From contig NW_003314264.1 in assembly GCF_000143415.4 (NCBI RefSeq), positions 31,238 to 95,237 of the forward strand: a stretch of DNA of 64,000 nt. Direction: 5' to 3'. The position numbers were made by a program, and so were the translations under genes. The notes under the pieces were generated by a model. The model was not told the origin of the DNA. It ran no database searches and saw only the letters and a list, made by a program, of their open reading frames with translations. Position 1 is the stretch's first letter. Each line of letters opens with the position of its first letter. Shown here in pieces: positions 11,834 through 64,000 of this stretch. The DNA comes from Selaginella moellendorffii. Lineage: Eukaryota > Plantae > Lycopodiophyta.

Positions 11834-11947
11834 AGGAGAGTTCTTTCAAAACTAGTTCCTACACCTCACTATCCGTAATATACTTTTGGAACCCCTTGTA
11901 GCCCCCCCCCCCGGGAGATACACGCTTTGGGCTTTCACCCCTCGACC

Positions 11948-26855: not shown

Positions 26856-27312
26856 CTCTTTCAAAACTATACTATAAATTATTAAATGTGAACTTAAAAA
26901 TCATCATCCTTCTATATTTAAAAGAGTAAGGGCGACATATTCAATCGAGATTCTTTTCGAGCTTAATGGTGGAGATGAAGACACGTGGGAAAAACAGTTG
27001 AGAGTGGAATGCTTTACAAGTTTTAGGTTTTGTGTATTTTTTTGGAAGCGGAGCAACAGATTGAGGCTCACACTTGGATGAGCAGGAAATGAATTTTGGA
27101 CAAGTGATCAAATTTCTGCAGTAGTGTGGTGGTGAAGCACCTGAACATCAATTTCGAGAATTTCGATATGCACTGCACAGTACAGTAATATGGAGCATGA
27201 AGCATATTTCTGAACGTAGTCTGAAACTCTCAACCTCAATCTTCTTATGAAAGGTACTAAAACTGTCTGTCACATTGCAGGAAACAAGCTTGCATACTTT
27301 CAGAAGGTTTGT

Positions 27313-27430
27313 TCAGGACTCTCCAAGAATGAACGTTGTCTCTTGGTACTTCTCAATTTGCTCCACCAGAAACTTATCAACATCATTGCTCTCTACAAGA
27401 ACAAATTCTGCTTTCACCTGTAAGTCAAGT
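27313..27430 (-). pseudogene. Possible USP-like domain exon fragment (U-box kinase type)
   Basis: VKAEFVLVESNDVDKFLVEQIEKYQETTFILG resembles the USP-like domain of plant kinases; judged by eye. Confidence 0.4.
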
Positions 27431-27599
27431 GTTTCCTTTGAGTTTTCAGCAAGCCAATCGGACTTTGTAACGTCTCTAGACATTTTGCAGCTCCTGAGAG
27501 AAGTTCGCTGTCTGGCCTCCTTGGTTGCCATATATGCAAGTGTTTCCTTCAAAACTTGCGAGACAGGTATAAAATTTTAATTTATATTTTATTTTATTT

Positions 27600-28110
27600 T
27601 AATCCAAACGCATAGATGGCTTTACGAATTTTTTCATACTTGCTTTTGAGAAAACATTGATGGTTGAAAAATAAATATAGAAAACAGTTTCGCATCTCCT
27701 GAACCTTACAAATTCTAATTGCTCTTGATTGGATGATTCTGGCATGGGTCTTTTGCCAAGATTTAGGAACAAAGGCCTCGTATGCAGCATTTGCAGCTGC
27801 ATTGCCACCAATAAACAGCATAAGCTCAACCCCTTTGTCTGTCCAGTCGTTGGAATTTATGGACATAAACTGTTGAAAAAGGACATAAAATTGGGAAGAG
27901 AGATTATTTACATTTACCTTTGATACAGAAGCTCCCATGCTTCAATGAACAGCATAGCATTTGTCACAGATTATAACTCCATGTTTGTAGAGCTGGAGAA
28001 ACAACAGAAGATGCAGCAAGATGGAAATGAAAATGACTTACGCCCATTGGGGACCCTGCAACCTGCAACCTGCAACCCTGCACATAACTGGTTGTCTGGT
28101 TGCAAGATAA
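27600..28110 (-). pseudogene. ArfGAP zinc-finger gene fragment
   Basis: PDNQLCAG..PQWA, GVIICDKCYAVH*SMGASVSK, WTDKGVELM..GGNAAANAAYEAFVP, SKYE; GT-AG introns 27993-28041 (49 nt) and 27870-27917 (48 nt); premature stop. Confidence 0.8.
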
Positions 28111-30445: not shown

Positions 30446-33400
30446 TTTATAAATCTATAAGAGTAATAATAATCACAAAGCCTTTTATAAGAGAAATCAA
30501 GTTTACAAATAATTAATTTGCTTTTAATTTGCAATTATTTAAAAACAAATGAAAAAAAGATTAGCAGGGATTCCAGTAGAAATAAAATCAGGGATCCCAG
30601 CTCTGATGGGAAGTAGATATAAAAGTCTGTAAATGTAAATTAGTTTTCTGATATAAAAATATACTTTAATGATTCTGTAAATTAATATTTGTTCATTTTT
30701 TAGGTTCTAATAGTATTTCCTGAACTTGTGTTACTTAAGTGGTTAATAGATTTAACGTTTTTAGATTGTCATAGCTTACCCAGAGAAATTTTGATTGAAG
30801 CCAAGCAGGCATTGCAGCCTTGAAGCCTTGGAGGACTTGTACCTTCTATGGAGCACAATCGGTCTGTGGCATATTGCCAACAGAAAGGCTTCTTAGTGTA
30901 GAAAATATTTTTAACAGTTAGAGAAAAGCATGAATGACAACAGCGTAGCCATGTCCTGCCCCACTGAGGACATGACCGCATGGCAAGTGCTCGACCTCAA
31001 GCACGAATCTTGACATATCCATTCATGCTCTTGCCATTTGAAACAGGTCCTTTAGCCCAACATTCATGCTCCTAGCTGCATTCCTAGCTTTCTTACTGCT
31101 TAGATTCATGGTATCTAATGATACCATGCAGAGGTAGCCATGAGGTGCTGGTTTTTATCCTCTCAATGCTTCCAGAGTAGAGTTCCCTTGCAAAGCCCTA
31201 CTTTCACAACATTGTTTTCTTTGGGGAAGAAGTATGTGGTCATGGCAGCTCCCAGGATCAAAGAGTATCTCAGGGTTGAGTAATGGTAGAAAGTTCTAAG
31301 CAAGTTTTACTGCTCATTCAATCTGGAAGCCTGCTACTCATCGGGAGAAGGATTGGAAATCTAGGAGACACTATCTACTCCTAGAGAGGTCTCTGCTGGA
31401 ACCAGCAATGCTATAGGTTGGGTCCAGAAAAATGCTGTTATGTCATCCCTTGAGAGGAGCAGTGAGGACATATCCAAGTTATAGCCGCCAAAAATAGGGT
31501 GACAAAAGATGAGGCTTTGGAGATGATGTGACCCAGAAATGAACAATGAGTCAGCAAGGGCTGCTGTGTGATGAGTCACACCTCTGGAGTTACTCCAGTT
31601 CAATCCCAAAGTGGATCTTTGCGCCATATGATAGGCTTTTCTCTTGAATGAATCACCTAGAGAAAGTATTGGTCCTGCTATGTTATGAGTCTGGTCCTCA
31701 AAAAAAGGCCTCCAAGACTACCGAGCAGTTTCTCACCATGGAATCCAATGAAACTTTCAAAAGTGATGGGTAAGAGAAATCAGATAGAAAGTGTCATTGA
31801 CTCAGCTAAGTTCGTGATCAATGTCTACAACAGTATCATGAGTGTGCAAGATCTGATGAACCCTGCTCATGAAGCATGACGGAAGTGATCTTCAGATTTT
31901 CAATTTGAAGACAATTTTCAGACTCAAAGTAGGAGCAAGTAACTGATTTTCCATTCTCGCCCTGTTTCTTCTTGTTTGTACTGTTTTCTAGAAGATTATT
32001 TTGTCAAGTATGCCTTGTAAAAGCTTTGCTCAAGATGAAAAAGAAAACACTCTCTGGCACTGTCCAGCTTCCAGTGGAACTGTGGAAATGGATCAAGTTT
32101 CTCTACTTCCTCATCTTATTGTGTCCCACTTATTGAATTGTGAGTGATTAGAAAGCTCTTTAAATTTATGATAACGAATTAAATATACAAAATTTTAGGA
32201 GACCACTACTTCACTTTGGTTCTTTGGAATGATCCTGGTGAAAAACTTTGAGGCTTGCAAAAGTGAACACTCAGAAGCAATCAAAAGAATCAACATGGTT
32301 AAAACTGATTACATGGTCCTTGCATGTTTATGGTCTAAGAAGTCTACCCCTTGTCCCACTTGTCCATTTTGATTNNNNNNNNNNNNNNNNNNNNNNNNNN
32401 NNNNNNNNNNNNNNNNNNNNNNNNNNNNNNNNNNNNNNNNNNNNNNNNNNNNNNNNNNNNNNNNNNNNNNNNNNNNNNNNNNNNNTCATGCTTCATGAGC
32501 AGGGTTCATCAGATCTTGCACACTCATGATACTGTTGTAGACATTGATCACGAACTTAGCTGAGTCAATGACACTTTCTATCTGATTTCTCTTACCCATC
32601 ACTTTTGAAAGTTTCATTGGATTCCATGGTGAGAAACTGCTCGGTAGTCTTGGAGGCCTTTTTTTGAGGACCAGACTCATAACATAGCAGGACCAATACT
32701 TTCTCTAGGTGATTCATTCAAGAGAAAAGCCTATCATATGGCGCAAAGATCCACTTTGGGATTGAACTGGAGTAACTCCAGAGGTGTGACTCATCACACA
32801 GCAGCCCTTGCTGACTCATTGTTCATTTCTGGGTCACATCATCTCCAAAGCCTCATCTTTTGTCACCCTATTTTTGGCGGCTATAACTTGGATATGTCCT
32901 CACTGCTCCTCTCAAGGGATGACATAACAGCATTTTTCTGGACCCAACCTATAGCATTGCTGGTTCCAGCAGAGACCTCTCTAGGAGTAGATAGTGTCTC
33001 CTAGATTTCCAATCCTTCTCCCGATGAGTAGCAGGCTTCCAGATTGAATGAGCAGTAAAACTTGCTTAGAACTTTCTACCATTACTCAACCCTGAGATAC
33101 TCTTTGATCCTGGGAGCTGCCATGACCACATACTTCTTCCCCAAAGAAAACAATGTTGTGAAAGTAGGGCTTTGCAAGGGAACTCTACTCTGGAAGCATT
33201 GAGAGGATAAAAACCAGCACCTCATGGCTACCTCTGCATGGTATCATTAGATACCATGAATCTAAGCAGTAAGAAAGCTAGGAATGCAGCTAGGAGCATG
33301 AATGTTGGGCTAAAGGACCTGTTTCAAATGGCAAGAGCATGAATGGATATGTCAAGATTCGTGCTTGAGGTCGAGCACTTGCCATGCGGTCATGTCCTCA

Positions 33401-34059
33401 GTGGGGCAGGACATGGCTACGCTGTTGTCATTCATGCTTTTCTCTAACTGTTAAAAATATTTTCTACACTAAGAAGCCTTTCTGTTGGCAATATGGCACN
33501 NNNNNNNNNNNNNNNNNNNNNNNNNNNNNNNNNNNNNNNNNNNNNNNNNNNNNNNNNNNNNNNNNNNNNNNNNNNNNNNNNNNNNNNNNNNNNNNNNNNN
33601 NNNNNNNNNNNNNNNNNNNNNNNNNNNNNNNNNNNNNNNNNNNNNNNNNNNNNNNNNNNNNNNNNNNNNNNNNNNNNNNNNNNNNNNNNNNNNNNNNNNN
33701 NNNNNNNNNNNNNNNNNNNNNNNNNNNNNNNNNNNNNNNNNNNNNNNNNNNNNNNNNNNNNNNNNNNNNNNNNNNNNNNNNNNNNNNNNNNNNNNNNNNN
33801 NNNNNNNNNNNNNNNNNNNNNNNNNNNNAATCATTAAAGTATATTTTGATATCAGAAAACTAATTTACATTTACAGACTTTTATATCTACTTCCCATCAG
33901 AGCTGGGATCCCTGATTTTATTTCTGCTGGAATCCCTGCTAATCTTTTTTTCATTTATTTTTATATAATTACAAATTAAAAGCAAATTAATTATTTGTAA
34001 ACTTGATTTCTCTTATAAAAGGCTTTGTGATTATTATTACTCTTATAGATTTTATAAAT
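30446..34059. repeat. Long inverted repeat (30446-31879 and 32486-34059), interrupted by N gaps 32375-32485 and 33500-33828
   Basis: Identical ORFs on opposite strands in the ORF track (31685-31879 vs 32486-32680; 31361-31627 vs 32738-33004); the outer AT-rich parts differ by a few SNPs. Confidence 0.85.
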
Positions 34060-34198: not shown

Positions 34199-34771
34199 TT
34201 AGACTCTATGTAACTCTATTTTGCATGTTAGTCTTTTCATTAGGTGTCTAGCAAGGCAAGAAATAACACCTTAGAATGCCACTCAATAATATTCCTCTAC
34301 TGTTATGTTTAGGACCTACTATGTTCTTGGAACAAATTGTTCTTGACTTCCCTCCATAAATATTTGTGACAAATGGAATATTTAGTTCACCCTATTGGTG
34401 ATGAATCATCTTTTTAGCAGCCCTAAAGTAAAAGAGGAAGTGGTTCAATAAAAGTTTAATCCCAAAGATTCAGCAACATAATTTAGTGACACATTTAGCA
34501 CAACTTGGAACTGCACATTTTTATAAATTTTGTAGCAAAAGCGGATCACGTGACAGGAAAGTCCAAGAACTCATGGAGAGTAAGTGATGAAGACTAAAGG
34601 AGCTAAGCTATGGACTTACTTGAAAAGAGAAACTTGCACGAGATTCCCAGGCCACCACATACTTGCAGGCTCCACCAGATACTTTCGCAAAAGACCAGCC
34701 CATCCAACTTAGCTTCGATCAAAACACTTTAGGGAAACATGGAAGAGAAAGCATAGAAAAACTTGTTTTCT

Positions 34772-35128
34772 TACCTGAGTGGTGATCACCAGTGTAGAAA
34801 TGGATCTTCTTCTTGTAGTTAGCGTTTTTTGATGTCGATGACGAAGACCACATAAGCACCTCCATTCCCAACCAGGGAGCCAGCACTGGCGAAGATGGTG
34901 ATGAAGACGTTCTTGATAAAGAGCCCTGGTGAAGGGGACGTGGTAAACCCTGGTGTGCAGCACTGCAGCCATGAAGAGGCCGATTGGCAACGCCACGATC
35001 TGGGCCGAGGTAAGCGTGATCACCAGCGGCTCCGTGTGGTAGGAGAAGAACTGGTTGAGGAAGGAGAGTATTGCACACGCAAAGAAGCCAATCGCCCACA
35101 TCCGGAACGTCCACACTGGCAAGGGAGG
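34772..35128 (-). pseudogene. Oligopeptide transporter (OPT family) exon fragment
   Basis: LPVWTFRMW..LSFLNQFFSY.TEPLVIT..Q..ALPIG.FMAAVL, then frameshifted NVFITIFASAG, ending ITTQ at a GTAAG donor. Confidence 0.85.
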
Positions 35129-35144
35129 TATTATTATTCTTGGT

Positions 35145-35394
35145 ATACTAACTCCTCTTGCTCTTCTCTTGCCTCTTCAATGTAGCCACTTCGTGCGAGG
35201 AGATCGATCATACTGCTAAAGTGTCGCTTGCTTACTTCCAGTCCATAGTCCCAATGGATGGAACAAAAGCATGAAATCCCAGCTTTCAGGTCTCCAGCAT
35301 GGTTGCAAGTCATAAGGATATAAATGAACGTTGGTGCGTTCATCTTCATCACAAACGAACCTTTGGCAGCCAGGAAGTCGAGAAGCTCACGCAT
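35145..35394 (-). pseudogene. PLS-class PPR fragment
   Basis: TFIYILMTCNHAG...DYGL....HFSSMIDLLARSGYIEEA matches PPR L2/S2-type motifs. Confidence 0.8.
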
Positions 35395-36781
35395 GTGGCT
35401 CTGGGAGAAATCTTCAAAGGCTGCCAGCTATGGTATGGCCCCACTGCGAGATCATCTTGCTCTAAAGCTGTGATGCAAGAACGGATTCCGGCGGCTTCTC
35501 AGTGAGACCTTTAGCCAAAGATGGACCCTTGGTCATGAGCTCCAACCCCAGTGCATCGATGGGAGGACATTTGCGCTGAAGGTAGCATTCTGGGACTGAG
35601 CAATGATCTGGTCGAGAATAGTGACAAGATCCTGAACTTTCGAGCCCAAAGAATTGAGGGATGTATTGACTCATAGCACGAGCAAGCAAGACACCTGTAG
35701 TTGGCAACAACTTGCCTTCGTCAACTTGGCCACCGCCTCCCCTCCATTCTCCATGAACAAGACTGCGGTTCCAACTCCAAGTCAAGATTGGCAACACCTT
35801 TGATGGACCTCAGCCTGAGCTTGGAGGGAGAAGCTGGAGCTGCACGCTGTAATTATTTATTTATATTATTATTATTATTATGCAAGCCTTCATACATTTT
35901 TGCCTCATTGCTCATGCTTTGTTTCTCTCTTTTCAAAGCCAAGTGATTTTCAAGGCATCTCAAGAATACAAAACTAAAGAAAGTACCTTTAGTTGACTGG
36001 CAGAAACTCAACTTTGACAACAAGGCACTGTAGGTAGGAAAAAGCAGAAGTGTTTTAGCGCTTTTGATTGACTTTCCTAGGTAGAGCTGAGATATGGAAG
36101 CTTAGATCTATCCTTTCTAACTGTCTTCTTGTATCACAAGCAGTTTATCATTGGCAAAGTTCTGCTACAATGGTAAACATGAAGAGTTGTTTCTCCTTGC
36201 AGCCAGTGTGCAAGATAATGAACATCATCCTTGACTGCATTGACCCTGAAAATGAACACTAACACAACTGGTAAAATCTTTTATCACTCACAGATAGATA
36301 GAGGAAAATCTTCATACCTTCTCCCAATTAAACTAGCCAGTAAATTTATGCCATCAAATTATATATTTGTCCAACATGAACGTAATACCACAGGTATGAA
36401 ATATAGAAACATAGATAAGCACAGACTAAATAACTAATTGAATCCAATCATACAACAATAAACTCATCAACACGTTTAGTCAATAGCTCTAAGTATGCCT
36501 TAAAGAGGCTAATTATACATGATCAATACTTAGTCAAAAATAAAGTGAAGACCATAAGATGGACTTATATTAGTACACAACCTTCTCATATATAAAGCTA
36601 TAATATGGGTACTAACATCTCAATCGCAAACAACTAAGTTGAACATCATCATACTCAACCAAGGCACAAGACTACCAAGACCAAGTTAGGGTCAGTGAGA
36701 GCTAACTACTCTTATAAAGTTTAACAAAATGCAAGAATAATGCTATAGGAGAAAAGCACAAGGATCACTTTTTTAGAAAAC

Positions 36782-47338: not shown

Positions 47339-47811
47339 ATATTTCAATTGGCCGAGTATTCATTCCATCCACTATCCCTATTATACATTTGTAACCCCCT
47401 ATAGCCCCCCCTTTGAGGAAGATATGCTTTGGGATTTCACCCCAAACCTCCCTTAGTACCAAGAGTTAGTCTCTAAGACAAGTGTGAAACTTACTAAATA
47501 TGGAATGGTGCTAGATTGCAAATCCGAATGCAAGAACAACACCATAGATAACATAATATAGAGAGCAACACTCTCTATATTCCATAGATATGCCTCTTGG
47601 GCTGATCTAGACACTTACCATAAATAGTATATGGATCCATAATGGAACCAACATATTAGGCATGATAGCGAGGGTGTCTGACGAATACGGTAAGCTACCA
47701 TATAATGATATTGAGGGACTAGACTCAATATCATGGGGGTTCTTGATACTAGCAAGTGCAAGCCAATGACAAAAGTTTCTCAAATTAGGCCAAATTTACT
47801 CAGCAAAAAAT

Positions 47812-49652
47812 TGTAAGCGACTAAATTTTCCATTCTACTTTAGTCACTTAACCCCACCTCTGACCACTTGGAAGGGTCTTATTCACAACCTCCTTAAGTC
47901 CAATTTAGGACTTAGGACTTGCTAGTCCCAAGAATGGCATCCATGCCACTCATCCCTTACACTTGGTCCAAGTGCTCCACGTGTCCAGTCCCAAGACCGA
48001 CACCCAAAGGTACCACTGACATATCGGCTTGTTACGCTAAGGCCATGCCCATTCGCCTTTATCACACTGGTGGTCCAATACCACTTGCATCACAATCCCG
48101 TCTCTCCAAGACTGGGCCATCCGTCCATAAGTGGTCATCCCAGATCCACTCCTTAGCATCCTTAGGATGCCTACTGACATAGGGAATAGCCTTCCTCAAC
48201 ATCCCTTTGTCAATTCCTACCAAGTCCTTCTTCCGTCCATGGCCAGGTTCACCAACACTGCCACTAGATCAAGGTCCGCAGGCCTGGCCACTAAGTCCTA
48301 TTGTCCTCTGGGACTTCCTCACCATGTGACCGTATCCATAGTCACTACAAAAGAGGACTGCTCCTCCTCCTTTCCCCCCTTGGGACTTCGGGACAACATT
48401 TCGGAACACCGTGGCCCTACGCGAGCCCCTTGGGTACTCTCCCCACCTTCCGCTTTTAGGTGCTCTAGCCATGGGCTTAGAGTGAGGTTCCGTTGAGCCA
48501 CACCAGGTATCCAAGTAGGTAGTGCCACCCACACTTGGACTGGGAGCATCGGCCAGTCAATCTCCAGGGGGAACTAGAGCCAGCTCTTGAACACTTCACC
48601 AAGCTACCCCGCTTGTCGGTCTGTATTCACTCTAGTTTTGGACTTCCCAGTGGTCAGTTCATCACCCAACACTGGGTCTGGCCTTCCTAGGCCAAACTAG
48701 CCTTTCTTGGCCAAACTGGCTCCACTGCAGTCCTCCCCCTTGCTATACTTTTGGAGCTCACCAAACCCCCCAGGGTCTGGGAGATGAACGCTTTGGGCTT
48801 TCACCCTCTTAGACTCGAACTCGGACTCGGACTTAGACTCGGACTCGGACTCGAACTCGGACTCAGGTTCGGGCTCAGACTCAGGCTCGGGCTTGGTCTC
48901 GGCCTCGGTCTCGGTCCCGGTCCTGGTCTCGGTCTCGGTCCCGGTCCTGGTCTCGGTCTCGGTCCCGGTCCTGGTCTCGGTCTCGGTCTCGGTCTTGGTC
49001 TCGGTCTCGGTCCCGGTCTCGGTCTGGGTCCCGGTCTCGGTCTTAGTCCTGGTCTCGGTCTTGACCTCGGACTCCATCTCAGGTCCTTCTCGGACTCCAT
49101 CTCAGATTACATCTCGGGTCCATCTCAGACTCCATCTCGGACTCCATCTTAGGTCCATCTCAGACTCCATCTCGGGTCCATCTTAGACTCCATCTCAGGT
49201 CCCTCTTGGACTCCATCTCGGGTCCTTCTTGAACTCTATCTTGGACTCCATCTAGGTCCATCTCGGACTCCATCTCGGACTCCACCTCAGACTCCAACTC
49301 GGGTCCATCTCGGGTCCATCTTGGACTCCATCTCGGGTCCTTCTCGGACTCCATCTTGGACTCTATCTTGGACTCCACCTCGGACTCCAACTCAGGTCCA
49401 TCTCAAACTCCATTTTGGACACTTCCACATGTGATGTGTTGGTCCTTTTGGGTCCCTTTTTGGAGCCTCGCTTATTGCTCACTTCATGCTCGTTCCTTAA
49501 GCACTCCATTGGGAGTTCCACTCCCGCTGTCGACCTTTCACGTCAGAGCCTTTTAGTCCAAACATGTTACACTCGTTTGGCTTTTGCTTTGGTCGCTACC
49601 ACGTGGCACCCTTTCGGCTCCACTTTGGGGCCTAGAGATTTTGTGTCTCATA
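47812..49652 (-). mobile_element. Family B solo LTR with expanded hexamer and 12-mer minisatellites
   Basis: Flanks rejoin as at ~42750-42770; degenerate TSD AAAAT/GAAAC. Confidence 0.85.
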
Positions 49653-50129: not shown

Positions 50130-53100
50130 GCAATCCACAACAACATGATATGGTGCCTGTAAACCGACATGAAACACATCGTGTACATGGGATAACTCAT
50201 CCAGAAGATCCAACTTAAAGGATACATTACCAACTCACTTTAATACTCAATAGAGCTTGACATATCTTGGCAATAGTTTCCAAGACAAAAATCCCTTGAC
50301 ATTCAAGTTTTGGGATTCCCTACGCTGGTGCACCAATTTATACTTAAAAGCACGTTATAGATCACAGTTTAGGAATTTAGTTCCTCCATACTGCCAAGTC
50401 CTCTCACATAACAAGTCTGTGATTATGCATGGACTCCTTCATGCTTGGCCTCATGAACCACCCCTTTTTTATATTCAACACCTTCAACTAGGGTCTTTGT
50501 TGTCCCCGACTTGCCAATCTCACTTAGAAAGTCACTCAACTAGCATAATATAATTCTATGCATAAGCATGAAAGTTTTTAACTATTGACTTTTGTTCAAA
50601 ACCATCTCTTTGAACATTCAGGGACTACTTCCCCAACTTTGATAGCCTCGCCTCATGGCAAGCTTCAAGACCACACCTCTGCTGTGCCACTCTGATTTCA
50701 CACATTTTATGAATCATTTACACTTGTCTTTCTAGATACCCTAAACCCTAAACCATTTACATTTGCCTTTCTAAGTACTAATCTACCTAGAATTGTTTTT
50801 TGGAACCTTGAAGGGACTTTGTCCTTTAGCTTGCTAAGACCTCTCGTTTTGCAAGCTTTTTAATTGCCATATGGTTTGACATAGACAATTCTATACTTTA
50901 GACTCTTCATGGCATCACGGTTGCTAATAGCAACATGTTCAAGTATCCACTTGATTCTTCACTCCCAACTTACATAACCACCCTTGGTTATGCCTTTTGA
51001 TTCTTAAGATTTTGTTCTATCCCTTTGCTACTTGTTTTTTTGCCTTACACCTTCCTGTTACTTATTCTCCTCTTATTTAGAAGGGTAGTTTTGCACTTTC
51101 TACTATGCCTTAACAAGTATTCTTAGGGATGAACTTACTTAATAATTTAGGAAGTGGTTCTTCAATTTGGATATGCTCACTATGCAATCCTATGCACTAG
51201 GATTAATAACGTTATGCATGGGCCTCTTATGCCCATTGCTAGCCATGCTAAAATCATTGTTTGGCTTTGTCCAATTCGGATAGATAGACTTCTTCTATCT
51301 TCGCAACCTTGGACATTTGGATAGCACTTTTTATCCATTATTTGCTAGGAACTTAGTCCCTTGGGCCTTATCTATTGCCCTTGCGACATCAAACACCACC
51401 TCTTGGTGTTATAGAGTGTTTGGGTGCCCCAATGATGGCCTCTTTGACAATAAGCATTCCTTTTTACAACATTAATTTACTATATCACAACATAAGCAAT
51501 TTATCCTCCCATAAGGGTATATCTAACTTCTTTATGCCATTAAAAAGTCTTGGGTAGCTACCTGCTACAAGTTTAACCGATTATTTTGCACCTTTTAATT
51601 GCCTTATAGTTGTCAAGTTCTACAACTCATTACTAGTGCTTCTACACCTCCATCATTATTTGGGTTACCACACTCCAACTGCATGCTTTCCAGCTTAGGC
51701 TATGCCATTCCCATTTCCATTAGGATTCCTTTGGGAAGGGGTTTTCGTGAACCCGCCAACTCATCTTAAGGCATCACGCCTTAGCACATTCGGTGTCTCC
51801 ACACCATTGGCTCTATGAGCCTGCCTTTATGACACTTCTTACTTCTGTCTAGGTCCTTGCCAAGACCAATACAGTTCTTTCTCATGCCAACTATCCGTTA
51901 GCACTACACCATAAAGTTTACTCACAACTTTGTGTCAAAGTTGTTTTCTTCTGGGAACACCTTCCCCACAACTTTAGTATGGCACATTCCACCATCGATG
52001 AGATACTCACTGCTCTCATACTTGGATCCTATGATCCTCCCCAACCTTCGTAGGGCACAACACACCTCAATCCAAATGCTTTTAGCGATCCCTTAGGACC
52101 ATTCCTTGACTCTACTTGAGTCATCTACCATTTTTAGACTTTAAAATCCTATGACCCACAAAGTCTTATTTGAGGTGCCAGTTCACTAGAATACAACTTC
52201 TTGTATTCATGTCCTACTCATAAGGACCATTTTTGCAAGTGTCACTCCAACACTTGATGTTGTTCCCTAGGGGCAACCTTTGCCCCTTAGGACTACTTGT
52301 CCATGTGATGAAAATACTAACTCATCCTCTAAGTACACCCCCAACTTTTTTGGTTGTTCTAGCATTTATTCAAGGTAGCCCTGGCTACCATTTTAAGGAC
52401 TTATGTTTTCATCCATATTTGACCTCCCACGGTCATTAATTTTGGTCTCAAATTCATGAGCACCAATCTCAATTTCAAGAGGATAATCTTGTGACTCCTT
52501 TATCGTTTTGGAATCTCTATCTTCCCTATGATCCCAACTATAGTTTTTTACCACAACTACATCAGCCAATTTGCTGAGTCAAACATTCATCTGAATTACA
52601 TCCTCAATTCAATGAGAAAACCTTACACTGGTCCCAAGATCCCAAAGTCGTTCCATTATTGGCCCTTTTTTATCCACCACCTCACCTACAAGTTCACACC
52701 TGAACTGTAGTGGAGAGCCATGTCTTCCAGACTTGCTACTCCTCAAGGATAGGCCCACTCCTAGGACCTTCCAATGCCAACACTAGTGGTGATATACTTG
52801 AGCATCAATTAAAGTTGGACTAAGGAACAGCTCCGATATCAAGTTGTAAGTGACTAAATTTTCCATTCTACTTTAGTCACTTAACCACACCTCTGACCAT
52901 TTGGAGGAGTCTCACTCACAACTTCCATAAGTTCTATTCCGATGTTGGGGACTTGCTAGCCCCAAAAATGGCATCTGTGCCACTCAACCATTGCACTTGG
53001 TCCAAGTGCTCCACGTGTTGGGTCCCAAGACCAACACCCAAAGGTGCCACTGACATATCAGCCCATTACACTAAGGCCATGCCCATTCACCTTTGCCACA

Positions 53101-54203
53101 CTGGTGGTCCAATACCACTTGCATCACAGTCCCGTCTCTCCAAGACTGGGCCATCTGTCCACGAGTGGTCATCCTTGATCCACTCCTTAGCATCCTTAGG
53201 ATGCCCATAGATATGGGGAATAGCCTTCCCCAATATCCCTTTGTCAGTTTCTACCAAGTCCTTTTTCTGTCCATGGCCATTTTTGCCAACATTGCCACTA
53301 GATTAAAGCCCGCAGGCCCGGCCACTAAGTCCTATTGTCCTTTGGGACTTCCTCACCATGTGACTGTATCCTTAGTCACTACACTAGAGGATTGCTCCTC
53401 CTCCTTTCCCTAGTTTGGGACTACAAGACAACATTTCGGAACACCGTGGCCCTACACGAGCCCCATGGGTACTCTCCCCACCTTTCGCCTTTAGGTGCTC
53501 TAGCCATGGGCTTAGAGTGAGGTTCCGTTGAGCTACACCAGGTATCCAAGTAGGTAGTGCCACCCACACTTATACTGGGAGCATCGACCATTCGATCTCT
53601 TGGGGGAACTAGAGCTGGCTCTTGAACACTTCACCAAGCTACCCCACTTGATGGTCCGTATTCACTCTAGCCTTTGACCTCCCAGTGGTTATCCCGTCAC
53701 CCACTGGGTATAGCCTTTCTGGGCCAAACTGGCCTTTCTTGGCCAAATTGGCTCCATTGGAGTCCTCCCCCTACTATACTTTTGGAGCTCACCAAACCCC
53801 TCAGGGTCTGGGAGACGAATGCTTTGGGCTTTCACCCTCTCAAACTCGAACTTGGACTCGGACTCGGCCTCGGTCTCTGTCCGGATCTCGGTCTCGACTT
53901 CGAACTCCATCTCGAGTCCTTCTTGGATACCATCTTAGATTCCATCTTGGGTCCATCTCGGACTCCACCTCAGTCCATCTCAGACTCCATCTCAGGTCCA
54001 TCTCGGACTCCATCTCGGTCCATCTTAGGCTCCATCTCGGGTCCATCTCGGACTCCATCTCGATCCATCTTGGACTCCATCTCAGACTCCTCAAATCGGA
54101 GCTTTTAGTCCAAATGTGTTACATTCGTTTGGCTTTCACTTCGGCCACTACCACGTGGCACCCTTTCGGCTCCACTTTGGGGCTTAGGGATTTGTGTCTC
54201 ACA
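50130..54203 (-). mobile_element. Family B LTR (52845-54203), degenerate PBS and internal region
   Basis: TG...CA LTR; ~51545-52844 is the reverse complement of 6427-7740; no pol motifs recognised. Left boundary approximate. Confidence 0.75.
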
Positions 54204-54651
54204 CTTTATTGTTTTGGAGTTTCTATCTACCCCGTGATCCCAATTATAATTGTTTACCATAATTATATTAGCTAGTTTGCTAAGTCAAATGCTCATTTGA
54301 ATCACATCCTCGACTCTCTAAGGAAAACCTTATATTGTTCCCAAAATTCATTCCCTTATTGGCCCTTTTTTATCCAACACCGTGCCTACAAGTTCACACA
54401 TGAACTGTAGTGGAGAGCCATGTCCTCTTGACCTTCTACTCCTTAAGTAGAGGCCCACTCGTAAGACCTTTCGATGCCAACATAAGTGGTAATATACTTG
54501 AGCACTAATAAGAATCAAATTAAGGAACAGCTTCGATACCAAATTGTAAGCGACTAATTTTTCCATTCTAGTTTAGTCACTTAACCACACCTTTGACCAT
54601 ATGGAGGAGTCTCACGCACAACCTCCATAAGTGATATTCCAGACTTGGAGA

Positions 54652-55799
54652 TGTAAGGAACCGACTCCCCGAGATGTCGTAGGCTAAAGGATCCCCAAAA
54701 GCTTGACCGAAGTGACAAAGAGTTCATCGGATGGGACCAAGTCAAGGATCGAGTCCAAGACCGACTCTAGGACCGAGTTCGAGATAGAGTCCGGAATCGA
54801 GTCCGAGACCGACTCGGGGACCGAGTTCGAGTCCGAGTTCGAGACCGAGTTCGAGACGGAGTCCGAGATCCGAAATCGGGTCCAAGACCGAGTCCGAGGT
54901 CGAGTCCGAGGTCGGGTCCGAGATCGGGTCCGAGATCGAGTCCGTGATCGAGTCCGAACCCGAATCCGAAGTCGGATCCGAAATCAGGTCCGAGATCGAG
55001 CCAGAGACTAAGTCCAAATACTAATATGGGTCAAGGGGTGAAAGCCCAAAGCGTGCGTCTCCCAAGGGGGGGGGGCTGCAGGGGGTTCCAAAAGTATAGT
55101 AGGGATAGTGAGGTCCAGGAACCAGTTTTGAAGGGACTCTCCAGTTGGGCTTCCAAACCGACTTGAGGTTGGGACTGGGACCGAGGGGCCTTGGGTGGGA
55201 GTGAGCATGGACTTGGCTGGTGCCGGAGGGGCCATCCAAGGAAGTGCTCAAGAGCAGCTCCCACTCCCGAAAGGGAAACCGATTGCGGTGCTCCCGGCTC
55301 ATGTGGAGTGGTGCCCCACTTGAGTACCATGCGGCTCATTGGTCCTCGCCCTTCCTAGGGGCTTGGGCCTTCCTTCGGGATGGAAGTGGGGGGCGAGAGG
55401 TACCCATACCGGGCCGCTAGGCCACGGTGTTTCGCCCCGGCGTCCCGAAGCAAGTGTTGCACTCAAGACTTGGGATTTAGAGGGTCCCATGATCAAGTCT
55501 TGTGGTACCAAGGGATGTTAGGAACCTGGAAGCTTGGTGTGCTTGGCTGCTTGTGCTTGCGGGGAGTGTAGCCGAACCTTAAGTCCAGTCTAACCCGGGG
55601 AGGGGGATTGGGAGTGATTTGGGAATCCATGGAAGGATGGCTAACACTCCGTTGCTCGTGCAGTGAGTAGCTGAAACCAAGTAGGAGCTGGTACCATAGG
55701 CGAGAACCTTGGCGAGGGAACTTAGCAAAAGCCAAGGCAGTGTTGGACGGATAGGCGAGGTAAGCTGGCAAAGTGGAAAGGAAAAATTTGTGGCTTACA
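54652..55799 (+). repeat. 5' LTR
   Basis: TGTAAGGAAC...GGCTTACA, direct repeat of 61035-62182. Confidence 0.98.
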
Positions 55800-55825
55800 A
55801 TTTGGTATCGGAGCCTTCTCCTCAG
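55760..55825 (+). other. Candidate 66-nt 5' UTR intron spanning the LTR end and PBS
   Basis: Donor GAG|GTAAGC, branch-like CTTAC at 55794-55798, acceptor CCTTCTCCTCAG| 33 nt before the ATG. Confidence 0.55.
55803..55814 (+). promoter_or_regulatory. Primer-binding site (tRNA-iMet type)
   Basis: TGGTATCGGAGC, 3 nt after the 5' LTR. Confidence 0.93.
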
Positions 55826-55858
55826 TTCTAGCGAAGGATAGAGGCGGATTGCTGGGAG

Positions 55859-58800
55859 ATGGCAAGGGCAGGGCGTAAGCAAACCCAGGCGGAGACAGAA
55901 CCTCCGCCAGAGCTGGAGCCTCCGGTCGAACAAGAGGCTATGGATGAGGAATCCTTGCATGAGGAGGACTCTAGTGAGGAAACTTCCAAACAGGAGTCCG
56001 GTGGCGAGGTTCGGTCATCCAAGGCTCGATTGGACGTTCTAGAAGGTCAATTGGCGCAGACCAATGCCCTGCTGGAGACTCTCGTACGCAAGCTAAAGCG
56101 TGACGAGAAACGGAAGAAAAGGCGAAAGACTGCGGATGCTGGCAGCGCAGAAGGTGCGGACCCTTCGGCAGGGACTGAGGCAAAACCAGACAAGGTCGAA
56201 CAGACCGAAGTGGAATCAGTCCCTCAGGCAGTTCCCAAGTACAAACCAAAGCCCCCACCGGTGTTCAAGGGAGTGAACGACTATAAGGTTGTGGAGGATT
56301 GGTTTTACGATATGGAGGACTACTTCCGAGCGTTACGGTTACCGAGCTCGGAGAAGGTCCCATGTGCAAAACCATACTTGGCAGATAATGCCAAGTCTTG
56401 GTGGAGAACAACGGAGGCCAACGAAGGACCGGTGGCCACCTGGGACATGATGAAGGCGAGGATCCGCGCGACATACGTTCCTCCGAATGCCACTCTGCAT
56501 CTGAGAGATGAGCTGAGTAGGCTGAAGCAGACTGGAACCATCCAGGAATATGTGAATGGGTTCATGGCAAAGAGGATACTTGTCACGGACATGGGGGATA
56601 TGGATGCGTTCCATGGCTTTATATCAGGTTTGCAAACCTGGGCTCGCGGTGAGGTGATGCGCTGGAACCCGACCAACTACAAGGAAGCGTTGGATGCGGC
56701 CATCAAGGTGCATTTCAACGATAACCTGCGAAAGGGGAACACGACGGGGTCGGGATCCACGTTTCACAAAGGGGCCAAACCGAGGGGACCATATAGCAGG
56801 GGGAAATTCAAGAAGAGTTTCTCTAAGAATGAGTCCTCGGGATTTCGAAAAGGCAAATCCGGTGGCCAGCGAGCAAGTACGTGGGGGAGTCAAGCGAAAA
56901 GAGACAAACCCACGGATAAGAAGGTCAAGTCATATAGCAGCGTGGGAAACAACGTATGCTATAACTGCGGTGAAGCGGGACACTTTTCGAGGGAATGTCC
57001 CTACCCGAAGAAGGCCAGAGCCAATATGGCCATCAAGTCGGGCGAAGTCCAAAATGAGGTATGTGATCCAGTCCCTAACTCAAAGTTACTCATTACACGA
57101 GCAACTTTGGTAGAGAGTCGTTCAAGACATCTACTAGCCCTCCGAGGGAAGCTCGGAGGTAGCTTTGTTAAGATCCTTATTGACACGGGTGCTTCGGATA
57201 ATTTTGTGGCTGCAGACATAGTCCGGCAAGCCGGACTAACGGTGCAGCGGCTAGGCGAACCAAGGACTATAGAGTTTGTTCAAGGTAGCCAAAGCACCGA
57301 TGAGGTACTTCGACAAGCGAAAGTCGAAGTAGGGACATGGAAGGTAGACATGGATTTCACCGTGTTGGACATGGCGGGATTTGACGAGATCTTCGGAATG
57401 GATTGGTTCAATCGGTTCGTGGTAGCCCTACATGGACAAGGTAGGAACCTTGTGGTACTGGCGAATGCCCAAGGAAGAAGATCTAGGGTGGAAGCCCAGG
57501 ATCTAAAGGTAGGGCAAAGCAAGGCCAAAGAATCCTGCTTAAACCTGGTGTCCACGAGAGGACAACTCACTAAAGGAACTAAGGCAGTCTTTTTGTGCTT
57601 ACTCTCGGTGAAGAGTGACAAGAAGACAAGAACGGAAGAAGTGCCTTTAGTGATCCAGCGGGTGTTGGACCAATTCCAGGATACCATGCCGGAGGAGCTA
57701 CCGGCGGGGCTGCCCCCAGCACGACCAATAGAACATAAGATTGAGCTGGTCGAGGGTGCTGAGGCAGTGGTTCGTCCCCCTTATCGTTTGAACGAAAAAA
57801 AACTCAAGGAGCTCAAGTGCCAACTAGAGGAGTTGGTGGACAAAGGGTATGTTAGGTTGAGCAAGTTGCCATATGGGGTGCCGGTGTTATTTGTGAAAAA
57901 GAAAGATGGATCTATGCGCATGTGCATAGATTACCGGTTGCTCAACAAGTATACAAAGAAGAACAAGTACCCTTTGCCAAGGATTGAGGACCTGTTCGAT
58001 AGGTTGGGAAAGGCAAAATACTTCTCGAGGATTGACCTAAGGTCAGGATACTACCAGATCAGGGTAGCCGAGGAAGATGTCGACAAGACAACCTGTCGAA
58101 CGAGGTATGGGAGCTTTGAGTTTCTGGTGATGCCCTTCGGGCTATGTAATGCGCCGGCAACGTTTTCGGCGCTAATGAACCACGTCTTTGTACCCTATCT
58201 GGATCACTTCGTGGTCGTCTATATCGACGACATCCTGATCTATAGCGAGACGCTAGAAGAGCATGCCGAACACTTGGCGAAGGTGTTTGAGAAACTAAGG
58301 GAACACAAGCTGTATGCTAAAGAGAGCAAATGTGACTTTGCTCAACAAGAGGTAAAGTTTCTCGGGCATGTGGTGGGCCAGGACGGGCTCAAGGTGGACC
58401 CGGAGAAGGTCCAAGCGATCCAGGAATGGGAGCGACCATCGAATGTACATGAGTTGAGGGCGTTCCTGGGGCTATGCAACTACTATCGAAAGTTTATCAG
58501 ACACTATTCGAGAGTAGCCCTGCCCTTAACGGACCAAACAGGAAAAGGGAAAATGGTATGGACAGCAGAATGCGAGGCGGCATTCGTCCACCTCAAAGGG
58601 AAGTTGAGGAAGGCTCCCGTATTGGCATTGCCAGACTTTGGTAAGGACTTTGAGGTAGAAACGGATGCTTCGGACTTTGCGTTGGGCGCAGTTCTGAAGC
58701 AAGACAACCATCCGGTAGCGTTCTTCTCGAAGAAGCTGGACAAGGCTCAACGGAAGTGGCCTGCCCATGAGAAGGAATTGTTTGCGGTGGTCAAGGCACT

Positions 58801-60631
58801 CAAGGAGTGGCGACACTACCTTGGGAGACACTTCAAGGTTTACACGGACAATGTGGCAACGAAACACTTCTTGTCAAAGCCCGACCTAAGAGGGAAACAA
58901 GGTCGGTGGGCCAATGCCTTGGCCGAGTTTGATTGCGAAATTCTGTATAAGCCTGGGAAGAGCAACATCGTGGCGGATGCGCTAAGTCGAAAAGCGAGCT
59001 TGAAGTTGGCAATATCCAGCGCAACAGCAACCTTCTGGGACGATGTGCGGACAGCATATGAGAACGATGGTCTAGCACAAGAAGTGTTGCTGAGGAATCT
59101 AGAGGCGCGGGAAGCTCACCAGAGAGGTGAGCTGCCAACGGAAGAGAAAACAGGCTATGCGGAACGCAACGGACTCATTTATTACAAGCAAACGAGGGTG
59201 TATGTTCCAGAAGGGGAACTAAGGAAGGTGGCCTTAGAAGAGTGTCATGACGGACCTCTTGCGGGACACGGCGGAGTGCCCAAGACGATGGGCTTACTCA
59301 AGAGGAAGTACCATTGGCCAGATATGGCTAAGGACGTCCAAGACTATGTAAAGACATGTCCAACATGTCAGCAGGTCAAAGCCGTGACTAAGGCTAGTGG
59401 GGGCTTGTTGCAAAGCATCCCAATTCCAGATCGCCCGTGGAAATGTCTTACGATGGACTTCATCACGGGACTACCCCCAAGCGAGGGGTTCGATGCGATA
59501 TTCGTGGTGGTGGACCGATTTTCAAAGATGGCACATTTCATACCCACCACAATGGACGTGGATGCGGAAGGTGTGGCGAAGCTGTTCTTTGAACAAGTGG
59601 TTCGAGTGCGGGGAAGGCCGGAAGAGATTATCTCAGATCGAGATAAGATCTTCACTAGTAGGTTCTGGAGGACACTCCTAGAACAGTATCGCACCAAATT
59701 GAAATTCAGCACAGCCTATCACCCACAGACAGGTAATGGGTATTAAGTCAAGATTGATGGCACTAACACTTCTTGACAGACGGACAAACGGAAAGGGTGA
59801 ATAGGCAGCTGGAGGATTATTTGCGATGCTATGTCTCGGGAGACCAGACCGACTGGGTAAGTCATTTGGGACTTGCGGAAATGTGTTATAACAACTCACC
59901 ACACTCAAGCATCGGGGTGAGTCCATGGGAAGTCATCAATGGGCGAGCTATTGAAGGTCCTGTGGAACTCGGCGTGGCCGAGTATCATGGAGAGTTACCC
60001 GCAGTGGAGGCATTCACGGCGGAAAGACTCAACATTTGGAATCTAGTGAGGGATTCCTTGGAACGGGCTCAACAAAGGCAAACTAAGTACGCGAACCAAA
60101 AGCGTCGGGATGTGGAGTTCCAAGCTGGGGAGAAGGTGTGGCTGAACACCAAGAACCTCAGCCTACCAAGCTGGATCAGCCGAAAGTTGACCCAAAGGTA
60201 AAGACGCATGAATTCCTGTAAATGAATTGATCTTGAGTTCCTTAAGCAGGTTCGCGGGGCCTTATGAAATTGAGGCACGAATCGGTAAAGTGGCTTACCG
60301 ACTCCGACTTCCTCGAGAGATGGGGAAGATGCACCCAGTGTTCCACGTGAACTTACTCAAGCCGTACTTTGAGGATCCGCTTCGCAAGGACCAAGTGAGA
60401 CCTTTACCTGAGGTTATCCAAGGGGAAGAGGAATACGAAGTCGAGGCCATCCTCAATGCGCGCAAGAGCAAGCGACAAGGACGCGAGGTGAGAGAGTTCC
60501 ATGTGAAGTGGAAAGGATTTCCACACTGCGAAGCAACATGGGAACCGGAGGAGAACCTAGCGAACGCACGAAATCTAGTGGAGGAATTTCTGCAAGGCAG
60601 AACTTTATGTACTTATGCAAAATTCAATTAA
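55859..60631 (+). CDS. Gag-Pol polyprotein; predicted spliced form joins 55859-59732, 59780-60197 and 60250-60631 (1557 aa); unspliced form is 1295 aa with a truncated integrase
   Basis: CCHC knuckle [14 protein letters not shown], protease LIDTGAS, RT YIDD, RNase H ETDAS, IN HHCC and D,D-35-E (complete only after splicing), GPY motif, chromodomain YEVEAIL...VKWKGF....TWEPEENL. Confidence 0.9.
59733..59779 (+). other. Predicted spliceosomal intron 1 in integrase (47 nt, phase 1)
   Basis: AG|GTAATG...CACTAAC...TGACAG|; removal gives [12 protein letters not shown]. Confidence 0.88.
60198..60249 (+). other. Predicted spliceosomal intron 2 in integrase (52 nt, phase 2)
   Basis: AAG|GTAAAG...TAAGCAG|G; removal gives KLTQR-FAGPY. 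Confidence 0.85.
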
Positions 60632-60724
60632 AAATATCAATTTGCAAAGTTGAGCAAATGGCATATGTTGGGACCCGAAGGCGCGCCAAAGGTAAGCTAA
60701 TTAGCATGGGTTGGATAGGTCGAC

Positions 60725-61015
60725 CAGGCGTAGGGCACTACGCCCGACTCCCTGCGGGGATGTCGAATCCGTAGACGTATTCTACGGAGGTTGGGTTCGA
60801 GTCCCAACCCCCTAGTAAAGCAAGGCTAGGTTCAAGTCCTGACCCTATACTAGGGCGTGGTGAGGTGAGGAGTATAGGGACACCTATATTCCGTTGTCAT
60901 GGGCTCTTGGCCGGGGAGGCTAACTTAGGCACACCGCTAAGTGGGGGGATGCCCCCGGAGACATGGACAACAAGTCGTAGGATAAAACGAGACGTTCGAT
61001 GTGGGCATCGAACTT
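60725..61015 (+). ncRNA. Putative structured cis-acting RNA in the retroelement 3' UTR
   Basis: Consecutive hairpins and two GGTTCRAGTCC motifs; retained in the older copy at ~9545-9838. Confidence 0.5.
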
Positions 61016-61022
61016 CTTCTAT

Positions 61023-61034
61023 GGGTGGTGGAGT
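61023..61034 (+). promoter_or_regulatory. Polypurine tract
   Basis: GGGTGGTGGAGT immediately before the 3' LTR. Confidence 0.85.
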
Positions 61035-62182
61035 TGTAAGGAACCGACTCCCCGAGATGTCGTAGGCTAAAGGATCCCCAAAAGCTTGACCGAAGTGACA
61101 AAGAGTTCATCGGATGGGACCAAGTCGAGGATCGAGTCCAAGACCGACTCTAGGACCGAGTTCGAGATAGAGTCCGGAATCGAGTCCGAGACCGACTCGG
61201 GGACCGAGTTCGAGTCCGAGTTCGAGACCGAGTTCGAGACGGAGTCCGAGATCCGAAATCGGGTCCAAGACCGAGTCCGAGGTCGAGTCCGAGGTCGGGT
61301 CCGAGATCGGGTCCGAGATCGAGTCCGTGATCGAGTCCGAACCCGAATCCGAAGTCGGATCCGAAATCGGGTCCGAGATCGAGCCAGAGACTAAGTCCAA
61401 ATACTAATACGGGTCAAGGGGTGAAAGCCCAAAGCGTGCGTCTCCCAGGGGGGGGGGGCTGCAGGGGGTTCCAAAAGTATAGTAGGGATAGTGAGGTCCA
61501 GGAACCAGTTTTGAAGGGACTCTCCAATTGGGCTTCCAAACCGACTTGAGGTTGGGACTGGGACCGAGGGGCCTTGGGTGGGAGTGAGCATGGACTTGGC
61601 TGGTGCCGGAGGGGCCATCCAAGGAAGTGCTCAAGAGCAGCTCCCACTCCCGAAAGGGAAACCGATTGCGGTGCTCCCGGCTCATGTGGAGTGGTGCCCC
61701 ACTTGAGTACCATGCGGCTCATTGGTCCTCGCCCTTCCTAGGGGCTTGGGCCTTCCTTCGGGATGGAAGTGGGGGGCGAGAGGTACCCATACCGGGCCGC
61801 TAGGCCACGGTGTTTCGCCCCGGCGTCCCGAAGCAAGTGTTGCACTCAAGACTTGGGATTTAGAGGGTCCCATGATCAAGTCTTGTGGTACCAAGGGATG
61901 TTAGGAACCTGGAAGCTTGGTGTGCTTGGCTGCTTGTGCTTGCGGGGAGTGTAGCCGAACCTTAAGTCCAGTCTAACCCGGGGAGGGGGATTGGGAGTGA
62001 TTTGGGAATCCATGGAAGGATGGCCAACACTCCGTTGCTCGTGCAGTGAGTAGCTGAAACCAAGTAGGAGCTGGTACCATAGGCAAGAACCTTGGCGAGG
62101 GAACTTAGCAAAAGCCAAGGCAGTGTTGGACGGATAGGCGAGGTAAGCTGGCAAAGTGGAAAGGAAAAATTTGTGGCTTACA
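61035..62182 (+). repeat. 3' LTR
   Basis: Direct repeat of 54652-55799. Confidence 0.98.
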
Positions 62183-64000
62183 GGAGATTTGTTAGCCCTA
62201 AGAATGGCATCTAGGCCACTCAACCTTTGCACTTGGTCCAAGTGCTCCACGTGTCTGATCCCATGACCGACACCCCAAAGGTACCACTAATATATCAGCC
62301 TGTTACGCTAAGGCCATGCATATTTGCCTTTGTCACATTGGTGATCCAACACCACCTACATCACAGTTTCGTCTCTCAAAGACTAGGCCATCCACCCATG
62401 AGTGATCATCCCAGATCCACTCCTTAGCATCCTCAAGATGCCCGTAGACATGGGGAACAACCTTCCCCAACATCCCTTTTTCAATCCCTACCAAGTCCCT
62501 TTCTGTCCACGGCCGTATTCGCCAACATTGCCATTGGGGTCAAGGCCCATAGGCTCGACCACTATGCCCCACTGGCCACGGGGATTTCCTTGCCACATGA
62601 CTACATCCTTGGTCACCACACAAAAGGACTGCTCTTCTTCCTTTCCACAATCCGGGACCTTGGGACAACATTTCGGAACACTGTGGCCCTATGTGGTCCT
62701 CTTGGGTACTCTCCCCACCTTCTGCCTTTGGGTGCTCTAGCCATGGGCTTAGAGCGAGGTTTCGTTGAGCCACACCAGATATCCAAGTAGGTAGTGCCAC
62801 CCATGCTTGGACTGGGAGCATCGACCATTCGATCTCTCAGGAGAACTACAGTCGGCTCTTGAACACTTCACCAAACTTCCCTGCTTGTCTGTCCGTATTC
62901 ACTCTAGCTTTGGACTCCTCAATGGAAATATCATCACCCAACACCTAGGCATAGCCTTCTTGGGTCACACTAAGCTTTCCTTTTACTAGGGTCCAACCCC
63001 CACACTCTCCCTACTATACTGTTGGAACCCCCTTGTAGGTTTTTTTCCCTGTATTTTCAGACTCTATACCTTGTTTCATCTCTCTTTCCTTGTTCATTTG
63101 TCTTCTTTCTTCTCTACTATCCAGCTTACATTATTTGAATGTTCTTTAATTTACATGCACATTCTTTTCCAGCTTTCAGGTCATGATTCTACTGCATCAG
63201 ACCCTAGGTTATCCTCCAGTGGTCACCTATAGGAGCAAGCCATGGATTCCAAGCATACTTTTAGATATACTCGGGATTATTCCAGGGTGTTTAGAGAAGA
63301 TTCATTGTTGAGTCTGAATGATACAACAGATTCCTCTTGGCATTTACAATGTGTTTGGATGACATCTCGATAGTGCAGTGAGGTTGTGAGCTAGCCTCGT
63401 AGCACTCTAATCCTTACTCTAAGTGAGAGATCTTATACCCAGATCTCACCAAAAGAAACTTCTCCATCGTCTTGTGATCCATTGTTGACTTCTTGTAAAT
63501 TTCTGTGCCCATAAATAATTTGACCGGGGTCGACCTCACCTGGACTGGTTAATAAATCAAATGTAGATCAAAGAAAGAATCTAAAACCTTCTGATAGGTG
63601 AATGAGTTTGTTGCAGCCACAGCCAGAATCTGTTAAAAAGCTACTACTGGAACTAGTTGTAGAACCAGTTGTAGTGAGCAATGGTGAGGCAAATCCTGCA
63701 AAGAGTGTCAAGTTTCGGTTACAAAAATAGAGCACACATAGAAAACAAAACAGACCTTGCCGAAACGATGAATTCAAGTAGCAATTTCTTGCAGTTTTTG
63801 GTCTGCCACAATACCTGGCTTTTGTAGATGTGCTTTCGAGCTCTTTTCCTCTCAACACCGCTGCTGCCTTGCGTTCCAGTTCTGCAAGGATCTTTAGGTC
63901 TTTCGACGCCAGCACTCGCCGTCCAAACAACAGAGGAAAATTTCCTCTTGAACCATGCTCCAGGCGTACTTTAAACTTGGAAAACAAAATTCTTTGGTCG

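Follow-up and report, generated by a model that had tools for sequence, protein, structure and literature searches.

A Ty3/gypsy element with a chromodomain, found in a 64,000-nt stretch of Selaginella moellendorffii DNA (the window), is probably young and intact, with an integrase split by two spliced introns and with the unspliced RNA as its likely template. LTR retrotransposons replicate by way of RNA, and loss of introns is what one expects of them. The family is already known as SM1-Galahad; its intron anatomy is new and partly supported by RNA. A family of hundreds of copies retaining two small introns within an enzyme domain would provide a direct route to asking how an LTR element selects the RNA that it copies, and would pair a datable gain of introns with a sister family of the same genome that lacks them. 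LTR families classed as broken on account of stops or frameshifts may likewise be intact, particularly where the introns of the host are very short.

Structure and identity of the element

The complete element occupied 54652-62182 of the forward strand (7531 nt), with the Pfam domain order Gag-PR-RT-RH-IN and the following features:

54647-54651 (+): left target-site duplication GGAGA, 5 bp
54652-55799 (+): 5' LTR, 1148 nt, TG...CA ends, 12-nt tandem repeats and a G-run
55803-55814 (+): primer-binding site (PBS) TGGTATCGGAGC, of tRNA-Met type in line with the SM1-Galahad description
55859-59732 (+): exon 1, encoding Gag (CCHC), protease, reverse transcriptase, RNase H, the integrase HHCC zinc finger and the first two catalytic Asp residues (Pfam, motifs, alignment to Ty3 and PFV integrases)
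59733-59779 (+): intron 1, 47 nt, phase 1, GT-AG, branch-like CACTAAC at 59761
59780-60197 (+): exon 2, encoding the catalytic Glu and the remaining integrase core and linker (Ty3 alignment)
60198-60249 (+): intron 2, 52 nt, phase 2, GT-AG, tandem acceptor AAG/CAG, AG/GT on both ends
60250-60631 (+): exon 3, encoding the GPY motif, an SH3-like C-terminal domain, the chromodomain and the stop (Pfam SH3_Tf2-1 and Chromo)
61023-61034 (+): polypurine tract (PPT)
61035-62182 (+): 3' LTR, 1148 nt, seven transitions relative to the 5' LTR
62183-62187 (+): right target-site duplication GGAGA

The paired TG...CA LTRs, short target-site duplication, PBS and PPT are those of a Ty3/gypsy element, and a Pfam Chromo match in exon 3 (E = 1.6e-16), fused to the integrase only once both introns are removed, is the mark of a chromovirus. 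The gag ATG lies 60 nt past the LTR. The LTRs, originally estimated to be about 99% identical, were found to differ at 7 of 1148 sites, all by transitions (99.4% identity), which corresponds to an age of ~0.2 million years if a substitution rate of 1.3e-8 per site per year, borrowed and not calibrated for this host, is applied. The first third of each LTR (54718-55040 and 61101-61400) was a 12-nt tandem array (GAGTCCGAGACC-like) with several frames open and a copy-dependent length.

SM1-Galahad was described from S. moellendorffii as a 7.5-kb element with LTRs of more than 1 kb (1076/1146 nt) containing G-runs, a tRNA-Met PBS and an RT-based placement among Galadriel-related chromoviruses (Novikov, Smyshlyaev and Novikova 2012, PMC3350952). 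Its published layout comprises one ORF of 3885 bp (1295 aa) without a chromodomain, followed by two small ORFs (316 and 309 bp), of which the second carries the chromodomain; the published element is a consensus of several out of hundreds of copies, no intact copy was found by its authors, and the structure was read as three ORFs (PMC3350952). A sister family in the same genome, SM2-Galahad, has a single ORF of 1577 aa and hundreds of copies too (PMC3350952). The window element shares host, size, LTRs, PBS and three-ORF layout with this description (7531 nt, LTRs of 1148 nt, ORFs of 3885, 318 and 309 bp, the second being 316 bp as published) and thus matches SM1-Galahad, the match being to the published description rather than to the consensus sequence. 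It differs from the published account in that this copy is intact and that the gaps between its ORFs are introns. Because the published sequence is a consensus of several copies, both ORF breaks are a trait of the family. Neither ‘intron’ nor ‘splic’ appears in the available main text of PMC3350952, which within the literature searched was also the only place where the name SM1-Galahad was met.

As originally predicted, the first ORF (55859-59746, 3885 nt without the stop) encodes 1295 aa and ends in HPQTGNGY* ahead of the catalytic Glu, from which intron 1 is separated by four codons. Intron 1 contains an in-frame stop (59744-59746) and has a GACAG repeat on both ends, and in intron 2 the donor itself creates the in-frame stop. 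Both segments have U2-type features (GT...AG ends and a branch-like motif, clear in intron 1 and weak in intron 2), and their GC content (38% and 37%) is lower than that of the flanking coding DNA (50-52%). Removal of both in silico produced a single 1557-aa frame with zero internal stops. Cutting out 59733-59779 restored the predicted spacing of 35 residues between the second catalytic Asp and the Glu (D1260 to E1296), and HHCC plus D,D(35)E were complete only without intron 1; cutting out 60198-60249 created the expected peptide KLTQRFAGPY and joined the chromodomain. With intron 1 alone removed, the frame was 1431 aa long, a catalytic core lacking both SH3-like domain and chromodomain, and with intron 2 alone removed it remained at 1295 aa.

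The exact position of the cuts was examined against other proteins. In an alignment to the Ty3 polyprotein (7q5b), the first ORF reached residue 1268 and exon 2 began at residue 1269, so that junction 1 neither loses nor gains residues. Between its Glu and GPY motifs the spliced protein had 140 residues, equal to the median of the 91 related proteins having both motifs. Alternative in-frame GT/GC-AG pairs (five at the first break and six at the second) were rejected, as only 59733-59779 and 60198-60249 fitted both the contigs described below and the Ty3 alignment. From this reading of the frames, unspliced RNA would encode Gag, protease, RT, RNase H and an integrase stump lacking the catalytic Glu (1295 aa), and a catalytically complete integrase is predicted to come from spliced RNA alone.

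The copy is nested within an LTR (54100-54651 and 62183-63030) belonging to a second family, which lies on the opposite strand and is apparently non-coding. That family has a similar PBS, a ~ 420-nt AT-rich internal part and LTRs that are ~ 70% Galahad-like in places, and is likely a non-autonomous partner; tandem and nested copies of it occur near 5896-6770, 13376-14346, 18502-19452, 47808-48706 and 52489-53738.

Contigs with and without the introns

Part of the stretch was contained in 20 of the 24 sequencing runs listed, and four of these were compared over 58800-61020. Three, from separate studies, are probable RNA (X6, X17 and X18) and one is probable DNA (X1, perhaps not independent of the genome assembly); these types are automated guesses, none of the runs being recorded as RNA. 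A single 2500-nt contig of X6 (record 22) skipped both introns, with 928, 421 and 331 nt aligned around the two skips. The skips were reported at 59728-59774 and 60196-60247, which, given the end repeats GACAG and AG, are equivalent to the GT-AG cuts. In the second study, an X18 contig (record 18) bridged junction 1 with flanks of 170 and 129 nt and lacked intron 1. In the third, an X17 contig (record 12) was gapless across intron 1. This evidence consists of three contigs with a depth of 2.7-11 and not of counted junction reads, and the removal of intron 2 is seen in one contig only. Since contigs of two of the three probable RNA runs skip exactly the GT-AG segments, the agreement is more than chance, and both segments are likely introns removed exactly from likely RNA, intron 1 in two studies and intron 2 in one.

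The transcribed X6 copy is not the window copy, from which it differs at 9 positions in 1680 nt. Allele comparison between X6 and X1 covered 28 rows within the X6 contig, among the 40 of 365 rows listed. At 19 of the 28, the X1 majority had a non-window letter absent from X6; X6 agreed with the X1 majority against the window at five and carried a minority letter at four. Two of these minority letters (59470 and 60162) made up less than 0.2% of the X1 depth and were common to X6 and X17. Given these shared rare letters, X17 does not represent genomic DNA sampled at random; they point to one rare young haplotype, close to the window copy, that occurs both with and without intron 1.

In X1, the summed depth of the intron 1 bin was 1.0e6, compared to 1.2e6 and 0.94e6 in the neighbouring bins, although summed depth does not equal copy number. 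Two X1 contigs, ~ 14% diverged, ran gapless through intron 1, and no intron-skipping joint was found among the 15 of 35 X1 joints listed. The X1 depth fell near intron 2 and reached its minimum in exon 2, where the window departs from most copies.

Further contig ends and joints were considered and set aside. The end of the X6 contig at 60578, past which X6 had no coverage, was not taken to indicate an early 3' end, as it came from a single study and as contigs of X17 (60487-60745) and of a diverged X18 member (60657-60815) go further. A possible intron 2 skip in X18 (record 20) was left uncounted: its bin depth of 1.71 was close to the 1.73 expected if skipped (1.09 if not), but its short side was only 24 letters long. 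Contigs of X17 extended 10 and 13 nt into intron 2, and none crossed it. In X18, a contig of a diverged family member had a loose end with a T-run right before intron 2 (60201), which may reflect antisense polyadenylated RNA or a library artefact.

Intron gain and selection

Among 120 related proteins, an HPQTDGQTE-type motif was unbroken in 113, and in all 113 an Asp stood 36 residues ahead of the Glu. On the DNA level, at least 83 related gypsy loci (44-56% identity) were compared, and insertions of 20 nt or more were seen in 0 of the 80 measurable at junction 1 and 0 of the 55 measurable at junction 2, as against 47 and 52 nt in the window copies. With related loci free of insertions and SM2-Galahad described as one ORF (known here from its description, not its sequence), gain within the SM1 line is the simplest account, and the introns were likely gained there after the split from intronless relatives. 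The repeats at the intron ends (GACAG; AG/GT) would fit insertion with duplication. No source of the introns was found within the window, where the only matches of each intron were in the second copy described below, an observation that bears on an introner origin. No near relative turned up in protein collections, where the best reached 54% and 50%, none of 12 candidates of exon 2 length qualified, and SM2-Galahad was absent from the results.

A second family member in the window (copy B) allowed a comparison:

8382-11837 (-): copy B, a decayed and truncated family member, 91% identical

Copy B had both introns in the same places and with the same lengths (47 and 52 nt), and its splice sites were altered (intron 2 acceptor AAG, donor 1 GTATTG). 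Scrambled Galahad pieces in both orientations (LTR, gag-protease and RT; 7781-8381 and 11835-13380) flank it, which suggests rearrangement after insertion.

Selection was assessed by simple site counting between the window copy and copy B, with the other reading frames as a control. In the spliced frame, pN/pS was 0.21 for exon 2 (17 synonymous and 13 non-synonymous differences; binomial p = 4e-5) versus 0.79 and 2.09 in the other frames, and 0.31 for exon 3 (p = 0.008) versus 0.43 and 1.03; over the stretch of exon 1 that was compared it was 0.20. These site counts show purifying selection on exons 2 and 3 in the spliced frame, suggesting that both exons were translated in that frame with the introns already present. 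The comparison of intron and exon substitution rates proposed along with the original prediction was uninformative, as only two copies were available: 8 of 99 intron sites differed versus 130 of 1809 exon sites (p = 0.69), and 75 of 604 third positions, neither contrast being significant.

Elsewhere in the window, a chimeric pseudogene (34450-35430, -) joins a PPR-like fragment, recognised by eye, to an oligopeptide-transporter fragment and corresponds to the gene model SELMODRAFT_404781. A frame within it (34928-35137, -) was 98% identical to that S. moellendorffii model, which aligned end to end with the window, and the next best matches from other genera were below 70%, in support of S. moellendorffii as the host. 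As for host introns, which the original prediction put at 48-56 nt in this window, one candidate was seen, in the oligopeptide-transporter pseudogene, with its donor at 34774 (-) and a length of 48 or 62 nt depending on the acceptor; no figure for Selaginella intron size was found in the literature searched. Other remains, identified by eye from translations, were decayed PIF1/Helitron-like helicase scraps (25639-26900 and 29346-29555) and laccase-like scraps (23245-23640). Near-identical inverted duplications flanked N gaps (27100-29100 and 30539-33979) and are possibly assembly artefacts.

Roles of the two RNA forms

The mechanism we propose assigns different products to the two RNA forms. 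Unspliced RNA would yield Gag, protease, RT and RNase H together with a dead integrase stump, and spliced RNA would supply the full integrase with its chromodomain. In contigs whose RNA status is guessed, the spliced and intron-retaining forms belong to one young sub-lineage. The full-length, intron-retaining RNA is the likely template for reverse transcription, since an intron placed in Ty was lost on transposition (PMC12786077); copying of the unspliced RNA would mean that new copies keep the introns. Spliced RNA would then have to be excluded from the replication pool. The route we favour, at about an even chance, is that spliced RNA lacks a needed cis element, through a further splice over the LTR end and PBS or a 3' end ahead of the PPT. 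Separate pools of translated and packaged RNA, as in BARE, are quite possible though less so, and the formation of intronless copies that do not spread seems unlikely.

Related arrangements are known from other elements. The precedent is Ogre, a Ty3/gypsy element of the Tat lineage in legumes: part of its transcripts have an intron spliced out that lies between protease and RT (PMC6317226). SM1-Galahad likewise retains a spliced intron in a gypsy pol. In Ogre, however, the spacer of ~ 274 bp sits at a domain boundary and gates RT, RNase H and integrase together, and the element is a non-chromovirus with a tRNA-Arg primer (PMC2533021), whereas SM1-Galahad has two ~ 50-nt introns inside the integrase that would gate the integrase alone. 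Its first ORF is open from Gag through RNase H, and the chromodomain, the Met-type PBS and a gag ATG 60 nt from the LTR also set it apart from Ogre, which has an extra 5' ORF. In the Ty1/copia element EVADE, a spliced subgenomic gag RNA is translated and made unfit as a genome by early termination (PMC5580714), and BARE1 keeps separate RNA pools for translation and packaging (PMC3735527). In both, the intron encodes part of the unspliced polyprotein and pol is lost by splicing, whereas the introns of SM1-Galahad are non-coding and splicing completes pol. Foamy viruses make the pol enzyme from a spliced RNA separate from the genome RNA (PMC7828637), but their splicing removes gag upstream of pol, with no intron within an enzyme domain. 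Spliceosomal introns survive retrotransposition in Penelope-like elements (PMC8557442), which are not LTR elements and transpose by a different chemistry, and in Cer1 splicing yields an accessory protein (PMC10309623). In a 2025 review, the notable exceptions to intron loss in plants are Ogre and EVADE (PMC12786077). No intron inside an LTR-element integrase was found in the literature searched, which included few subscription papers and not Repbase, and the available text of PMC5014426, PMC12477816, PMC2864245 and PMC12130899 contained nothing on introns in gypsy integrase.

The original prediction had gone further and proposed a switch regulating transposition. Its reading of spliceosomal-type introns inside the integrase, carried by the family and leaving an intact integrase only after splicing, is borne out by contigs with and without introns in probable RNA runs; the regulated switch is less secure, as the introns could be mere passengers that are tolerated and regulate nothing. 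Unspliced RNA is what LTR elements package in any case, so that a spliceable insertion would persist, and we lean slightly towards this explanation, leaving functional control by the introns somewhat short of even. Tolerance is in keeping with intron sites that have changed at least as fast as exon sites from one copy to the other and with the hundreds of copies reached by the intronless SM2-Galahad (PMC3350952). It has more difficulty with the retention, across copies diverged by ~ 14%, of two introns that are independent of each other and both bring in a stop in frame at once, when precise loss via cDNA, as seen for the Ty intron (PMC12786077), is the expected fate. Passenger introns rival only the switch and are compatible with the mechanism proposed above up to the exclusion of spliced RNA.

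Other readings deny the spliced RNA its part. Rare intronless genomic masters could supply both the integrase and, either as DNA or as RNA, the intronless contigs and mobilise the intron-bearing majority in trans; the guessed run types, a joint check in X1 that covers 15 of 35 joints, and the rarity of the expressed haplotype in that DNA run would all allow it. We regard it as improbable, because X17 has the rare alleles of X6 with intron 1 present, and because intronless offspring would be expected of such masters, yet introns are present in the published consensus, in both window copies and in the DNA contigs. Selection on exons 2 and 3 is moreover seen between two intron-bearing copies, and an exact intronless copy needs splicing to arise in the first place. 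Still less probable is a non-autonomous SM1-Galahad with a dead integrase, moved by SM2-Galahad and spliced only incidentally: no intact copy was known to the authors of 2012 and an intact sister family exists in the same genome (PMC3350952), but in the window copy every catalytic motif is present, and in the spliced frame exons 2 and 3 are open, with purifying selection as strong as that on exon 1. Joining of the three ORFs by frameshift or readthrough, or separate translation of the second and third, each of which has an ATG, would follow from the published three-ORF layout and is largely refuted. The breaks are insertions of 47 and 52 nt, not slips; recoding would add residues beside the catalytic Glu; the first ATG of the second ORF (59881) lies downstream of the Glu; the part of exon 3 ahead of its first ATG has four synonymous versus one non-synonymous difference (p = 0.02); and contigs show exact removal of the segments.

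A stronger form of the proposed mechanism is a hard-wired division between messenger and genome, in which splicing completes the integrase and chromodomain and the same RNA becomes unable to replicate through a splice over the PBS or an early 3' end. We consider this doubtful. If it is true, the final step of the transposition cycle would be gated by the host spliceosome, and a genome copied by reverse transcriptase would have gained and stably inherited two introns in its coding region. Donor-like motifs were not in excess in the element (5 versus 3.3 in shuffles), and candidate introns at 55760 and 60692 are therefore conjecture. Two features might contribute to such exclusion:

55760-55831 (+): candidate third intron, by motif only, with donor CGAG/GTAAGC at 55760 and acceptors at 55825 or 55831 (66 or 72 nt)
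60600-60680 (+): AT-rich tract at the ORF end (32% GC, AATTAA/AAAATA), a candidate early polyadenylation region

The donor at 55760 is strong, lies 40 nt inside the LTR end and is also present in the LTR of copy B, and the acceptors are pyrimidine-rich and just past the PBS; the candidate intron would excise the LTR end and PBS. The AT-rich tract could terminate the RNA ahead of the PPT, resembling the splicing-coupled termination in EVADE (PMC5580714). A consensus donor (CAAAG/GTAAGC) at 60692, in the 3' untranslated part, was also present in copy B, and two contigs were unspliced there.
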